From Dehalococcoidia bacterium (lineage in GTDB: Bacteria > Chloroflexota > Dehalococcoidia > GIF9 > AB-539-J10): a DNA stretch of 64,000 bases. Numbering within the stretch: position 1 is the first letter of the stretch; each line of letters begins with the position of its first letter. Where the stretch lies: the NCBI GenBank assembly GCA_049671165.1, contig JBATUN010000021.1, forward strand, positions 35,623 to 99,622, written 5' to 3'. A program made the translations under genes and the position numbers. The notes below the pieces were generated by a model, which saw only the letters and a list, made by a program, of their open reading frames with translations, searched no databases and was not told where the DNA came from. Shown piece after piece: positions 38,308-44,511 of the stretch.

Positions 38308-38332
38308 TGGCAGCGGCTGGACTTGAACCAGT
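38308..38332 (-). repeat. tRNA-Met 3'-end remnant a (att-like)
   Basis: tggcagcggctggacttgaacca versus tRNA tggcagcgggtggatttgaacca. Confidence 0.6.
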
Positions 38333-38381
38333 ATCTAAACTGCAAGTGATATAATTATACTCATAGTTATGTTGACTGGAA

Positions 38382-38810
38382 TTGGCAATGCCGCGTAGGA
38401 GAAAACGAGTATCGTTCCGCACCTCAGAGGTATCACATGTGGTCGGCGCTACCCATAACCAGCTTGTGTATTGGGACAAGACGGGCCTGGTGAGCCCGGG
38501 TCTGAGAGCAGCATCCGGTAGAGGTTCACGCCGTCTCTATTCTGTGGAAGACATTTTCGAATTGAAGATACTGATGAAGTTGCTGGATAGCTCGCTGTCT
38601 CTGCAGCGCATACGGTCGAGTTTCCGCTTTATACGAGGTCAATCTAAGGCTTTATCGTCGTTCGTAGTGCTCACGGATGGGAAGACAGTCTATTTCTACG
38701 AGGATTATGATGTTCTTGTGGACACGCTGAAGGAAGGTCAGACAGTGTTGCGCATCGCAGTTCAAGACCTGATTGCAGAAGTGCAAGCCAAGTTGACCGG
38801 TGGGCAGTGA
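38382..38810 (+). CDS. MerR-family helix-turn-helix transcriptional regulator (possibly excisionase-like)
   Basis: MerR-type helix-turn-helix VVGATHNQLVYWDKTGLVSP. Confidence 0.7.
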   Translation: MAMPRRRKRVSFRTSEVSHVVGATHNQLVYWDKTGLVSPGLRAASGRGSRRLYSVEDIFELKILMKLLDSSLSLQRIRSSFRFIRGQSKALSSFVVLTDGKTVYFYEDYDVLVDTLKEGQTVLRIAVQDLIAEVQAKLTGGQ

Positions 38811-38847
38811 ACATGGAAGGTGCTCAGCCTGTGCCAGCTGCAGAATA

Positions 38848-38873
38848 TGGCAGCGGCTGCATTTGAACCAAAC
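38848..38873 (-). repeat. tRNA-Met 3'-end remnant b
   Basis: tggcagcggctgcatttgaaccaaac. Confidence 0.6.
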
Positions 38874-38891
38874 AAAAGGAGCTTTTGAGAT

Positions 38892-39380
38892 ATGACAAAT
38901 TATGCCGAAACGCAGTGCTGTCCCAAGTTTGATCCGGAACCATGGCATGACAAAGAAATAAGGTGGGAAGACAAGCTCTTTATCAGGGACACTATGATGC
39001 AATTCATGCATATGCCGCTACCCGGAACATTCGGTAAAACAGTCGGAAGGATGTGGAAGAAGATTGAAGACGCGGGAGCAAATCCAGATATCAAGGACTT
39101 TATCATGCTTGCCACCGAATCATCACCCTGGAAAGGTGAAGTATATATAAATGTGACAAAAGAAATCCCGAACGCCGAAAACGTCAAACTATCAGGAACA
39201 TATATCACCAAAGTTTTCGATGGTCCGTATAATGACGTACCAAAATGGATTAAAGACATGGATCAATATGTAAACCGGAAGGGCAAGACAGTCAAGAAGT
39301 ATTATTTCTACTATACGACCTGCCCCAGGTGCGCCAAGATCTACGGCCATAATTATGTGGTAGCATTTGCAGAGGTGTAG
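38892..39380 (+). CDS. hypothetical protein
   Basis: 162 aa, Cys-containing; no motif assigned. Confidence 0.45.
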   Translation: MTNYAETQCCPKFDPEPWHDKEIRWEDKLFIRDTMMQFMHMPLPGTFGKTVGRMWKKIEDAGANPDIKDFIMLATESSPWKGEVYINVTKEIPNAENVKLSGTYITKVFDGPYNDVPKWIKDMDQYVNRKGKTVKKYYFYYTTCPRCAKIYGHNYVVAFAEV

Positions 39381-39487
39381 GATACCATCTTCTTGAATAT
39401 GGGAAATGTTGAAGTGAACGGTGGTATTGACAACAAAAGCGTGGATGGCTATTCTGAACCTACCACGCTGATATAAAGAAGGTTGGT

Positions 39488-40537
39488 ATGGGATTATCAC
39501 CTGAAGAAAAAAAGAAAATCTATGAGGAAGAGAGAGCGCGGATTGAGGCACGGGAAAAGATAGAGCGCGAGAAACTGACAGAGCTGGGAAGTACAAGCAC
39601 AGGGCTGTCGCCAAATATTGCAGGACTATTGTGCTATGTTGGTGGATGGATAAGCGGCATCATTTTTCTCGTTTTAGAGCAGAGAAACAAATTTGTTCGT
39701 TTCCACGCGACGCAGTCAATTGTTGCCTTCGGCACCATCACAGTTGCCGGGATTGTACTCGGCTTGATACCGGTGGTCGGTGTTGCTTTCTCTTCAATCA
39801 TAGGAATTATAGGGTTCATTGTTTGGATAATAATGATAGTCAAGGCTTCCAGTGGTGAGTGGTATAAACTGCCCTGGGCTGGTGATGCTGCTGAGAAGAT
39901 GGTCGCTTCTTCAAGGGTAGCAGGTGAATACCCTGAACCTCCACCCCCAGAACCAACAGCAGAATCAGAGGCAGCAGCATCTACACCACCGCCCACTGCA
40001 GATTCAGGTAAACGAATCGAAGACAAAGTAGACGCTCATTTCAAAAGTAGAAGTGGGAGAATAGTGGCTTCCGCTTTTGCCGTCGCCTGGAGTATCGTTT
40101 TATTAATATTCTTCAACTTTTTTAATCAATACGTAGCCTATTATCAGTCGGAAACAGTGGGCGGCATTACTACGTGGACGAGATATCCGTTCTTTACGGA
40201 AGACGTCAGTCTATGGCTACCGATTCTGACAACAACTCTAATTATAACTATTATCGGTCACATTATTTTGATTATCCTTGATAGGTATGTACTGCATGAA
40301 ATGATTCATATCGTTATAAATGCATTTTCACTTTGGACGGTTTTAACCCTTCTATCTATCTTTCCTTTCGACTTCAGTGTAATACCTAGCACTACTGCGG
40401 CTGAGGCCACTTATTTAGGCGTCAAAATATTCTTGATTTTTATTTCAGTTGTGGTAGGAATCGCACTACTGGTCAGGGTAATAAAGTTAATTGTTAATGT
40501 AGTCAGGGGAACTGCTACTTACGAGGAGCATATTTAA
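39488..40537 (+). CDS. membrane protein with DUF4870-like N-terminal domain
   Basis: LCYVGGWISGIIFLVLEQRNKFVRFHATQS; multi-TM C-terminal part. Confidence 0.55.
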   Translation: MGLSPEEKKKIYEEERARIEAREKIEREKLTELGSTSTGLSPNIAGLLCYVGGWISGIIFLVLEQRNKFVRFHATQSIVAFGTITVAGIVLGLIPVVGVAFSSIIGIIGFIVWIIMIVKASSGEWYKLPWAGDAAEKMVASSRVAGEYPEPPPPEPTAESEAAASTPPPTADSGKRIEDKVDAHFKSRSGRIVASAFAVAWSIVLLIFFNFFNQYVAYYQSETVGGITTWTRYPFFTEDVSLWLPILTTTLIITIIGHIILIILDRYVLHEMIHIVINAFSLWTVLTLLSIFPFDFSVIPSTTAAEATYLGVKIFLIFISVVVGIALLVRVIKLIVNVVRGTATYEEHI

Positions 40538-40554
40538 CTAAAAGGAGGTGTGAT

Positions 40555-43007: not shown

Positions 43008-43036
43008 TGGTGGGAGTGGTTGGATTTGAACTAGTT
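43008..43036 (-). repeat. divergent tRNA 3'-end-like remnant d
   Basis: tggtgggagtggttggatttgaactagtt (shares GGATTTGAAC and the terminal TGG). Confidence 0.45.
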
Positions 43037-43523
43037 AATGGGCGATGTACTTTTCCATTTCAATGAAGTCTACCTGCCCGATATGGGTATCCCTGACCGT
43101 CTTGTTAGTCTCTACAAAACCTGCTCTTTGATAGACCTTTATAGCGCGCTGGTTAAAAAGAGCAACTGCAAGTTTAATGGTGTGTTTAGTCAATTTGTAC
43201 TGCAATATTGCATATCTTACACACTCCGATACAAATTCTTCACCTAGTCCTTGGCCAGCTAGGTCAGGTCTTAGACCTAATGATAGCCAGAATTCATCGT
43301 TTTCAGTATAAAAAGAGGCCCATCCTACCAATTCGTCATTTTCATTCAACACAGCCCTAATAGTATTCTGCCAGTTCTTAGCGTCCATAAATATCCTGAG
43401 GTCATCTTCATCTGCCGCCATATCGTAAAACGAATAGACATCATCATAGTGCCAATTGGAGATAATATCATTTGCATATTTCTCGTTCATAGGGATAAAA
43501 ATATATTTCATTTCATACTCCAA
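43035..43523 (-). CDS. GNAT-family N-acetyltransferase
   Basis: QGLGEEFVSE...AIKVYQRAGF motifs A/B. Confidence 0.75.
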   Translation of the reverse strand: MEYEMKYIFIPMNEKYANDIISNWHYDDVYSFYDMAADEDDLRIFMDAKNWQNTIRAVLNENDELVGWASFYTENDEFWLSLGLRPDLAGQGLGEEFVSECVRYAILQYKLTKHTIKLAVALFNQRAIKVYQRAGFVETNKTVRDTHIGQVDFIEMEKYIAH

Positions 43524-43678
43524 ATGCTTGTTTAATTGTAGTAGACATTGAACGTCACCTTCTCTTATTCGAGATGCGAGACGATATATGAGAATCGGCA
43601 GAAGGTCAATAAGGATATGAGACTATTTACAGGCTCGAAAACGATAGAGCTATCTCTCGAGTATTTCTTGTTCCAAGG

Positions 43679-44002
43679 CTAATTACTCGAACCTTTGAAC
43701 AGCAATACCACCCCTATTATTAATGCGGCTATAGGAGATACGAGGTAGAGGATGAATTCAGTAGGCCCGAGAAGGTCTTTAAGCATCACGGCACCAACTA
43801 TCCAGCCTAATGTGAAGACAATCCCCGAGAATCTGAAAGTGAAGAATAAAACGATTGATGCTAAAAAGCCCACAACTGTAAACAGAATAACTAGAAATGA
43901 CGGTATGAGTCCCTCTTCAGCGAAAGCAGCTAATAGAGCGCTGATTATGATGCCACCTATGATACCTGTTACAGCTTCAACAAAACCTCGTTGAAAGTTC
44001 AT
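43679..44002 (-). CDS. hypothetical membrane protein
   Basis: 107 aa, three TM segments. Confidence 0.4.
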   Translation of the reverse strand: MNFQRGFVEAVTGIIGGIIISALLAAFAEEGLIPSFLVILFTVVGFLASIVLFFTFRFSGIVFTLGWIVGAVMLKDLLGPTEFILYLVSPIAALIIGVVLLFKGSSN

Positions 44003-44075
44003 CTTAGTACCTCCTCTTTGTTTTGATAATATATCTTAGCAGATGATTTGCAAGGAAAACAAGTCATAAAAGAAG

Positions 44076-44089
44076 TGGCAGCGGCTGAT
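44076..44089 (-). repeat. truncated tRNA-Met 3'-end remnant e
   Basis: tggcagcggctga. Confidence 0.45.
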
Positions 44090-44102
44090 TGCTAGATCTC
44101 AA

Positions 44103-44306
44103 TTATATATACCCAACAGCCACCAATACTCCAACAACGATAACAATTACTCCGACAATCTGGTGGAAACGATATATATTATCGCCCCATAGTATCTTTG
44201 AGCGAGCAACTATTAACCGATAGATAAAGAAATCGCTTTTTAATCTGCCGCAGACCAGTAAGAACAGGCCTGCCAAAACTATCAAAATACCCCATAGTAA
44301 GTGCAT
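44103..44306 (-). CDS. hypothetical small membrane protein (67 aa)
   Basis: Two TM segments. Confidence 0.35.
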   Translation of the reverse strand: MHLLWGILIVLAGLFLLVCGRLKSDFFIYRLIVARSKILWGDNIYRFHQIVGVIVIVVGVLVAVGYI

Positions 44307-44439
44307 TCTCCCTCCCCTAACCAGTTATATGAAGGGTTATTCTGGACGCTTCGTCATTATTTAAATAACAATCCATCAAATGCTGATTTTGGGCATTTTA
44401 ACCCAGTGGCTACGCAAAAAGACTAAACAAATAAACAAA

Positions 44440-44511
44440 TGGCAGCGGGTGGATTTGAACCACCGACCAAAGGCTTATGAGTCCTCTGCTCTACCCCTGA
44501 GCTACGCTGCC
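44440..44511 (-). tRNA. tRNA-Met (anticodon CAT; could alternatively be a lysidine-modified tRNA-Ile)
   Basis: Reverse complement folds as GGCAGCG-TA-GCTC/AGGGGTA/GAGC-A-GAGGA/CTCATAA/GCCTT-TGGTC-GGTGG/TTCAAAT/CCACC-CGCTGCC-A; CCA not encoded. Confidence 0.8.

Follow-up and report, generated by a model that had tools for sequence, protein, structure and literature searches.

Islands and prophages are said, in the work of Williams from 2002 and 2003, to enter tRNA and tmRNA genes by means of tyrosine integrases, with crossover sublocations in the T-loop and the anticodon loop and with islands in tandem. In the tandem arrays described so far, there are usually two to four islands, which measure 5-100 kb and each encode an integrase of their own. 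Here we describe an array of this general kind in a window of 64,000 nt (the whole stretch of DNA analyzed) from the Dehalococcoidia bacterium GCA_049671165.1 (contig JBATUN010000021.1, positions 35,623-99,622, forward strand), where partial copies (remnants) of the 3' end of a tRNA-Met(CAT) gene are strung out between that gene and mutM. The locus is like the tRNA islands in having the 3' end of a tRNA as target, elements that restore the tRNA, displaced 3' ends that persist as co-oriented repeats ending in 7-nt loops, an integrase adjoining the attachment (att) site in the full-size members of relatives, and presence/absence boundaries exactly at the repeats (L095/L142, L166/L152 and the DUF454, solute-binding-protein (SBP) and GNAT cassettes, L numbers being our labels for loci in related contigs). 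Unlike those islands, it packs at least 10 remnants into 22.6 kb, and most of its modules are 0.3-3 kb long and have no integrase. The mutM to tRNA-Met interval is very probably an accretion island formed by serial site-specific integration. The mechanism is already known; what is new is how dense the array is and how prevalent single-gene cassettes are that lack an integrase and share an arm motif.

The closest described case is, by analogy, the tycheposon/island system of Prochlorococcus, in which tyrosine-recombinase elements use specific tRNAs, one tRNA-Met(CAT) included, each newcomer displaces the older elements inward, fragments of tRNAs and of integrases lie scattered, the islands hold flexible genes, and one to two elements per genome are reported (bioRxiv 10.1101/2020.12.28.424599). 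Unlike tycheposons, the arrays here are made of single-gene cassettes with a shared arm motif and belong to an anaerobic sediment Chloroflexota host. None of the hallmark replication and packaging genes of tycheposons (primase, helicase, polymerase; terS/MCP) was among the Pfam matches of the window modules, and in the two full-size elements of relatives described below (L322 and L325) none was seen except an AAA_25 protein.

Within the same bacterial class, the ssrA islands of Dehalococcoides have the same layout as the window array. In the portions of the report cited here, several such islands lie in tandem downstream of one small-RNA gene with ~20-bp direct repeats of its 3' end, the large serine recombinase DsiB belongs to a six-gene integration module, islands without recombination genes are proposed to be cis-mobilisable, one amplicon spans ~7 kb of cargo together with part of the integration module, and sizes overlap those of staphylococcal cassette chromosome (SCC) elements (PMC3146451). 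From those portions we take the ssrA islands to be much larger than the window cassettes. Unlike the ssrA islands as portrayed there, the array targets tRNA-Met, and the Pfam matches of the window include no serine recombinase and no ParB/RecF-like module. The ssrA islands, which a first, sequence-only reading of this stretch had named as precedent, hold up as an analogue but not as members of the same family, given their serine recombinases and six-gene module (PMC3146451, in the same portions). That source also cites the concept of accretion-mobilisation and of cis-mobilisable elements, which are bounded by att sites, have no recombinase of their own, and stand in tandem with autonomous elements whose integrase can move them (PMC3146451). 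Unlike the described cases, the elements here are many and much smaller. To our knowledge, those cases are single elements beside one integrative and conjugative element in Firmicutes.

The tRNA-Met(CAT) gene (44440-44511, minus strand) is the sole tRNA that ARAGORN found in the window. It scores 67.6 bits against Rfam RF00005 (gathering threshold 29), all pairs of its T-stem (GGTGG/CCACC) are formed, and its 3' end reads TGGCAGCGGGTGGATTTGAACCACCGACC on the plus strand. The gene serves as the attachment site and forms the proximal boundary of the array. A window search with the 22-mer TGGCAGCGGCTGNATTTGAACC, allowing up to 3 mismatches, gave matches at 24756, 38308, 38848, 42396 and 44440, all five on the plus strand, with a chance expectation of 0.00 and no match in any of 100 shuffles, which rules out a chance origin of the copies. 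An acceptor 12-mer added a shortened copy at 44076, and the T-loop half added a divergent copy at 43011-43032. With nhmmer and a profile built from the tRNA 3' halves of relatives, we found further matches at 21899 (E 1.8e-4, right behind the mutM stop) and 34381 (E 0.017) and weak ones at 32819 and 36220. These decayed copies start at 21894, about 34372, 32817 and 36213, respectively, and each weak copy aligns with a better-kept one (0-4 mismatches) at the matching site of a related contig. The array extends over 21894-44511 (~22.6 kb), from the mutM stop codon (21889) to the tRNA, and comprises at least 10 remnants plus the gene. The five remnants listed in the sequence-only reading (38308, 38848, 42396, ~43008 and 44076) are therefore real, with their orientation along the tRNA and a chance expectation of 0.00, although the divergent one begins exactly at 43011 and the array reaches well past five copies, to the strong one at 24756 and the four decayed ones.

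All copies in the window are co-oriented with tRNA-Met. No convincing copy was found on the opposite strand of the window, where the best nhmmer match had an E of 0.22 and lay inside the AdoHcyase gene; the minus-strand matches look like chance. The same consistency extends to the 229 copies of the window and the 121 loci listed below, which never occupy both strands of one contig, so the uniform orientation and core proposed at the outset were borne out. This distribution also bears on whether the copies might be a dispersed repeat of the repetitive extragenic palindrome (REP) or miniature inverted-repeat transposable element (MITE) kind, spread for example by the Y1/RAYT-like transposase encoded at 45351-45908, their likeness to a tRNA being secondary. 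A Y1_Tnp-domain gene does lie 0.9 kb from the tRNA, and a T-arm is a hairpin. However, convincing copies occur only on one side of the tRNA, on one strand, and nowhere else in the window, the few weak matches elsewhere in it look like chance, and the hairpin is lost in most copies (T-arm pairing is gone in copies C, D and E, as lettered below). The Y1 gene is, moreover, missing from L166, L095 and L152, yet L166 and L152 keep co-oriented copies. We regard a repeat of this kind as a very improbable source.

The repeats, their orientation and their end points are direct observations. The 169 remnants compared show two peaks in the length of their identity to the tRNA, one at 22-24 nt, which reaches two bases past the T-loop, and one at 37-43 nt, which reaches the anticodon loop. 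The T-loop and the anticodon loop are the two classical crossover sublocations of tyrosine integrases. In the window, copies B, C, D and E belong to the short class, whereas A and the copies at 21894 and 34372 belong to the long one. Most of the intact tRNAs have a fully paired T-stem (45 of 56, in five covarying versions), and the other 11 have one T-stem mismatch, which in 9 of them gives a GGCGG/CCACC hybrid, as expected from exchange in the T-loop. The 10 nt behind each copy are 54% T, compared with a background of 27%, and TTTT stands behind 46% of the copies as against 5% of random positions, which suggests that each copy may formerly have ended a working tRNA gene. A tandem array of tRNA genes that arose by duplication and then decayed would also leave co-oriented, tRNA-derived copies, but here only 3' parts survive, with sharp ends at the T-loop or anticodon loop, and no 5' halves were detected with Rfam at E values up to 10 between 20 and 48 kb. 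In addition, some insertions can be seen to have duplicated exactly 22 nt, and integrases adjoin the copies in relatives, as set out below, so that such an origin is scarcely credible.

A metagenome scan for the core returned at least 120 contigs, and the 121 loci that we analyzed are the listed contigs plus one viral contig. Many of the listed contigs are 80-96% identical to window genes. Among the matches listed, 54 of the 121 loci hold two to six copies, and contig Ga0209427_10001034 holds at least nine. Module content differs between these relatives, as had been anticipated, and clean empty sites exist. The sole difference between L095 (empty) and L142 (filled) is a 497-nt cassette together with a 22-nt duplication, inserted exactly at GAACC|AGCGACC. 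The pair L166 and L152 shows the same cassette in another background, and it corresponds to window positions 44088-44439, there without its left arm. Among the loci compared, this newest cassette stands beside the tRNA with three different left neighbors.

The order of the modules is not colinear between relatives. The window has the DUF454 cassette at a distance of 11.6 kb from the tRNA, L131 has it flanked by the MerR and DUF4870 modules, and in L160 it adjoins the intact tRNA; its right boundary is identical in all three. The SBP and GNAT cassettes also shift their position in the array with boundaries exactly at copies. The presence, absence and re-ordering of modules are read directly from these contigs. 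A rare variant of the copy, ACTTGAA, marks the right end of the SBP module both in the window and in L096 while the right-hand neighbor differs; that the variant stays with the left-hand module fits the exchange model, in which the old tRNA end remains with the older DNA. Adjacent modules differ in their identity to L088, with values from 77% to 96%. The filled and empty sites, the re-ordered modules and the integrases beside the same core in relatives all uphold the serial integration that had been proposed from the window alone.

The integrases of relatives are likewise directly observed. The viral contig (L081) ends in a Phage_integrase gene, and 37 nt away from it lies the 3' half of a tRNA-Met whose type, GCTGG, is also found in the remnants; full-length homologues of this integrase adjoin tRNA-Met or remnants in L188, L164, L154 and L114. 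The family has 336 database members at E values of 1e-20 or below, annotated as XerC/XerD-like or tyrosine-type recombinases and with named sources that are mostly Chloroflexota; the integrases of relatives match Pfam Phage_integrase and Phage_int_SAM_4 (also SAM_1 and SAM_5) and are encoded on the elements. On long contigs, full-size members take the form of classical islands: a 7.5-kb element in L322, which comes from a 752-kb scaffold, is bounded by a 43-nt copy and by a 30-nt remnant that lies 1 kb from the tRNA, and a 10.8-kb island in L325 is bounded by the tRNA and a 42-nt copy.

Vestiges of such integrases are present in the window itself. Positions 28785-28877 (minus strand) encode 31 aa (STLMVTNRYCQAAGCYGAIESHKRYSLIDNF) with 71-76% identity to the C-termini of the L164, L188 and L189 integrases (tblastn E 1e-10 to 1e-12). 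At 43612-43513 (minus strand) there follow one another a predicted promoter (TTGACC-N17-TATCGT), a Shine-Dalgarno sequence and an ATG with 11 codons (MSTTIKQAFGV*), which match the promoter and N-terminus of the L099, L164 and L106 integrases. The GNAT gene begins immediately behind this 11-codon vestige, the body of the integrase being replaced by the GNAT cassette. The sequence-only reading that no integrase remains is correct for an intact gene but overlooked these two vestiges. Just inside remnant A, on the minus strand at 24840-24875, 12 aa (TIKDLGRWKSLE) weakly match the L146-type integrase in its C-terminal region (E 0.017) and may be a third vestige.

Two further features of these integrases were observed in the relatives. 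In one class, the reading frame is open from inside the tRNA/att core (THKPLVxGSNPxAAT) to the integrase by way of a conserved ~38-aa linker, with no ATG, GTG or TTG between core and integrase; its members are loci L188, L171, L146, L170 and L150 and proteins P0107, P0114, P0116 and P0121-P0124. In L171, a promoter, a ribosome-binding site and an ATG lie 12 codons upstream of the core, on its far side, and 16 of 61 long-type remnants have an in-frame upstream ATG, whereas the counts for the other two frames are 3 and 5. These features suggest an attP inside the 5' end of the integrase gene, so that integration would part the gene from its start signals. Outside this class, integrase genes parted by their attachment site are known from the SSV type of archaea, and phage Mx8 offers a partly similar case. 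A scan of viral contigs with the L188 integrase found no relatives. In many other loci (L095, L084, L142, L193, L174, L159, L189 and others), only the last 31-57 integrase codons stand directly behind the tRNA or remnant, in frame and with at least three different junctions. These fragments look like recurrent internal deletions of an integrase following the tRNA. Their origin from an attP located towards the 3' end of the gene was rejected because L159 and L189 keep the start of the linker, which makes the fragments internal-deletion derivatives of the class with the integrase gene behind the tRNA.

Taken together, these data suggest how the array would have grown. Circular elements carrying a copy of the tRNA 3' part would be recombined into the tRNA gene by tyrosine integrases. 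An exchange of strands within the 7-nt T-loop would duplicate 22-24 nt, and one within the anticodon loop 37-43 nt. The incoming element would bring a new tRNA 3' end and a T-rich trailer, the old 3' end and all behind it would be displaced further from the gene, and repeated rounds would leave a row of co-oriented remnants. Some modules would be decayed integrase-bearing elements and others non-autonomous mini-elements, reduced to the core (joined in many relatives by a conserved arm motif) and moved in trans by the integrases of full-size elements that target the same tRNA. The recombination chemistry, the mobilization in trans and the circular intermediates are what we infer in this scheme. 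The modules behave as non-autonomous elements moved in trans, since they are mostly of cassette size, with one gene or a few, and lack an integrase.

Several observations weigh against this account of the locus. Remnants farther from tRNA-Met are not steadily more decayed, so simple stacking alone is insufficient to explain their order. Pfam and homology searches found no intact integrase in the 64-kb window, and present activity in the source genome is therefore unproven; none of the integrases found in relatives is tied to the 22-nt class, and none of the cassettes was recovered in a circular or attP form. Some boundaries, such as the PrsW-MerR junction in L166, have no recognizable remnant either in the window or in relatives. 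Deletions have acted on the array, and possibly other rearrangements too.

The cassettes themselves were compared across the loci listed. Of the modules, 102 are bounded at both ends; their lengths run from 220 to 6090 bp with a median of 930 bp, a figure that short contigs bias towards small modules. Of these, 53 contain a single ORF (open reading frame, at least 40 aa) and only 3 contain any fragment of an integrase. The 112 modules fall into 92 sequence families, of which those that recur have varying neighbors. Their ORFs face both ways (157 versus 83), and the fraction of predicted membrane proteins is 0.39, compared with 0.34 in the flanking core genes. A cargo of small membrane proteins, as first proposed, is accordingly a local feature (41.3-44.3 kb) and not a general trait of the cassettes. 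At the distal (left) end of 21 cassettes, the 15-nt motif GGAGAAGGTCAATAG stands 13-19 nt from the 22-nt core (16-19 nt in 19 of the 21), and the flanks beyond it differ in the examples listed. The motif is strand-biased (60 to 17) and equals the -35 region of the predicted integrase promoter in full-size elements. The cassettes that bear it would be non-autonomous derivatives that have kept an arm of the parent element. Matches to the motif in viral contigs (120) were set aside as chance, none having a tRNA core. If the newest cassette does circularize, the junction expected, running from its right end through the core to its own left end, is ...AAACAAATAAA[CT]AA[AG]-TGGCAGCGG.TGGATTTGAACC-GCC[AG]A[CG]TAGG....

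These features invite comparison with integrons and with attC clusters that lack an integrase, and the likeness is one of behavior only: a fixed site, mostly single-gene and promoter-poor modules, short sites, very high diversity and a content and order that vary between strains. Unlike an integron, the array has no IntI beside it in the window and no attC-type imperfect palindrome, its 22-nt site derives from a tRNA, its genes face both ways, and integration regenerates an essential gene. The array could nonetheless be a dedicated, integron-like capture platform, with the tRNA-Met end as fixed primary site and hundreds of single-gene cassettes reshuffled by a resident or family-specific integrase, and not a by-product of island decay. 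The small size of the bounded modules, about half of them with one ORF and very few with an integrase fragment, the many families with varying neighbors, the arm motif near the core with differing flanks beyond, and the one cassette found beside the tRNA with three left neighbors all point this way. However, no resident integrase was found at a fixed place beside the array, the 5' side of the tRNA being occupied by a kinase gene, and the ORFs run in both directions. The short-class remnants end ~2 nt into the 5' half of the T-stem, so that most lose the hairpin and none is attC-like, the identity of the arm motif with the -35 region of the integrase promoter fits simple derivation from full-size elements, and short contigs favor small modules in the sample. 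We consider a dedicated platform rather unlikely.

With similar caution, we advance as a tentative proposal that sediment Dehalococcoidales carry a tRNA-Met-anchored cassette system that is integron-like in its working but built of tRNA-integrase parts, with partner integrases that include the class read through the attachment site. Such a system would draw on a very large pool of integrase-less cassettes of 0.3-1.5 kb, each with the 22-nt core, a T-rich trailer and often the arm motif, which would be inserted at the tRNA and reshuffled in trans. If cassettes are truly moved in this manner, they would represent a second, independently evolved route to integron-like gene capture, with a 22-nt tRNA recombination site that is simple and synthesizable; if the arrays are only decayed islands, they are a clear but ordinary example of tRNA-anchored island growth. 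The array shows how one tRNA, in an uncultured lineage that is abundant in sediment and poorly known, serves as the funnel through which flexible genes are gathered by many tiny, mostly single-gene insertions. Dense arrays are natural markers of strain history, and they offer a defined pair of att site and integrase for genetic tools in Chloroflexota.

The modules can be followed outward from the tRNA, all features as far as remnant A being assigned to the minus strand except for the distal modules (24790-32416) and where stated. The newest cassette (44088-44439; blastn 88-92% identity, filled and empty junctions) carries a gene for a 67-aa membrane protein (44103-44306) and adjoins the tRNA in the window, L142, L152 and L161, whereas it is missing from L095, L166 and L177. 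Remnant F behind it (44076-44087, found with the 12-mer) has been reduced to the last 12 nt of the tRNA 3' end; L142 and L152, which keep the full 22-nt copy, indicate that the rest of the copy and ~146 nt of the left arm of the cassette were deleted. A 107-aa membrane-protein gene follows (43679-44002), taken from the ORF list; it has no Pfam match and the same layout in L099, L164 and L322, and is part of a former integrase-bearing element in the order att, small gene, integrase promoter, integrase. Next come the promoter and N-terminal integrase vestige described above (43513-43612) and remnant E (43011-43032, 4 of 22 mismatches, found with the T-loop half) with its GNAT acetyltransferase cassette, identified by Pfam (43011-43511), which in L153 lies directly between DUF2807 and the tRNA. 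The remnants delimit the modules overall, as had been supposed, but not at 43011-44076, where two modules have been joined by deletion.

Remnant D (42396-42420), with a cassette of genes for 60-aa and 88-aa membrane proteins, spans 42396-43010; it rests on the 22-mer match and on relatives, where its left neighbors differ (L096, L170, L141, L156 and L083). Remnant C (38848-38870) opens a composite module (38848-42395) with a PF20603 hydrolase, DUF4870, DUF2807 and membrane proteins of 138 and 104 aa, assigned with Pfam. Relatives break at ~39390, 40541, 41306 and 41906-42001, and the stretch therefore consists of several fused modules. Remnant B (38308-38331, a 22-mer match) bounds a single-gene cassette (38308-38847) for a MerR-family protein (38382-38810, plus strand; Pfam). 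The genes first assigned to the modules were recovered by Pfam as MerR_1, DUF4870, DUF2807 and GNAT, and small hydrophobic ORFs are indeed present, the PF20603 hydrolase being an addition. The suggestion that the MerR protein might act like an excisionase (Xis) was not supported, as it matches only MerR, GlnR and CueR regulators and PHROGs of unknown function; it looks like an ordinary MerR/GlnR-type regulator.

Farther out, a decayed remnant (36213-36236, 6 of 22 mismatches) introduces the SBP_bac_5 solute-binding-protein module (gene 36306-38084, module 36213-38307), which is missing in L166 and L177 and stands behind DUF2807 in L096. A decayed long-type remnant (~34372-34404, nhmmer E 0.017) with a PrsW-like/DUF6512 module occupies 34372-36212; stronger copies, with 0-4 mismatches, lie at this site in L131, L083, L166 and L088. 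The single-gene DUF454 cassette (32417-32840; Pfam and relatives) ends in a decayed right-end copy (32817-32840). The distal modules (24790-32416), delineated from Pfam matches, repeats and a low GC of 0.43-0.46 over 24-29 kb, include the 31-aa integrase vestige (28785-28877, minus strand, by tblastn and translation), and remnant A (24756-24789), a long-type copy with 2 mismatches in its first 22 nt found by the 22-mer, nhmmer and relatives, lies directly behind a second copy of the mutM 3' end. At its distal end (21894-24755), the array consists of the remnant at 21894-21930 behind the mutM stop, a radical-SAM/SPASM gene, a gene for a 394-aa protein and the mutM 3' duplicate (24589-24751).

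The array is flanked by core genes (mutM, CoaBC, SecDF-like genes and AdoHcyase), and GC content falls to 0.42-0.46 across 22-29 kb of the window. A genome-contig scan with AdoHcyase gave as best match a Dehalococcoidales metagenome-assembled genome at 81%, with no synteny to the window; the repeat occurred in none of the 80 loci of that scan, and no tRNA-Met lay near the gene in the 17 closest loci scanned for tRNAs. In window-type genomes, a kinase gene stands on the 5' side of tRNA-Met. On that side, 0.9 kb from the tRNA, the Y1_Tnp gene (IS200-like or RAYT-like, 45351-45908, within 45240-45966) is an indel: where it is missing, in L166, L095 and L152, the kinase gene adjoins the PHP gene. 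The tRNA itself is possibly the tRNA-Ile2 alternative, whose anticodon is identical to that of tRNA-Met(CAT); ARAGORN is unable to separate tRNA-Ile2(CAU) from elongator tRNA-Met. It is presumably closer to an ileX-type tRNA-Ile2(CAU) than to the elongator. An A31-G39 mismatch in its anticodon stem is kept in all relatives, and the pair 28-42 covaries.

Three smaller features mark the distal part of the array. A defense-type cluster (24939-28499) encodes a Vsr mismatch endonuclease, a Dcm cytosine methyltransferase, GmrSD_N (DUF262) and an FRG-domain protein. Beyond it, an amine oxidase gene (29355-30929) is flanked by a 300-nt direct repeat (28874-29173 and 31166-31465, 92% identity), each copy of which codes for a hydrophobic protein of ~80 aa, and a flavodoxin gene follows at 31870-32382 (both assigned by Pfam). 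The segment 28811-30982 is 96% identical to L088, compared with 77-92% for neighboring modules, which suggests that the amine-oxidase module may have been exchanged recently. Finally, the last 160-240 nt of mutM/fpg are duplicated (21646-21889 and 24589-24751), with a tRNA-Met remnant behind each copy, and the duplicates enclose the low-GC radical-SAM/SPASM gene and the 394-aa protein, which has a Cys-rich tail (CACVACACACACACAGGG). The same unit of a mutM 3' fragment plus remnant is duplicated around other cargo in L088, L155 and L109, and some elements therefore seem to have captured, and to carry along, part of the flank of the ancestral tRNA.

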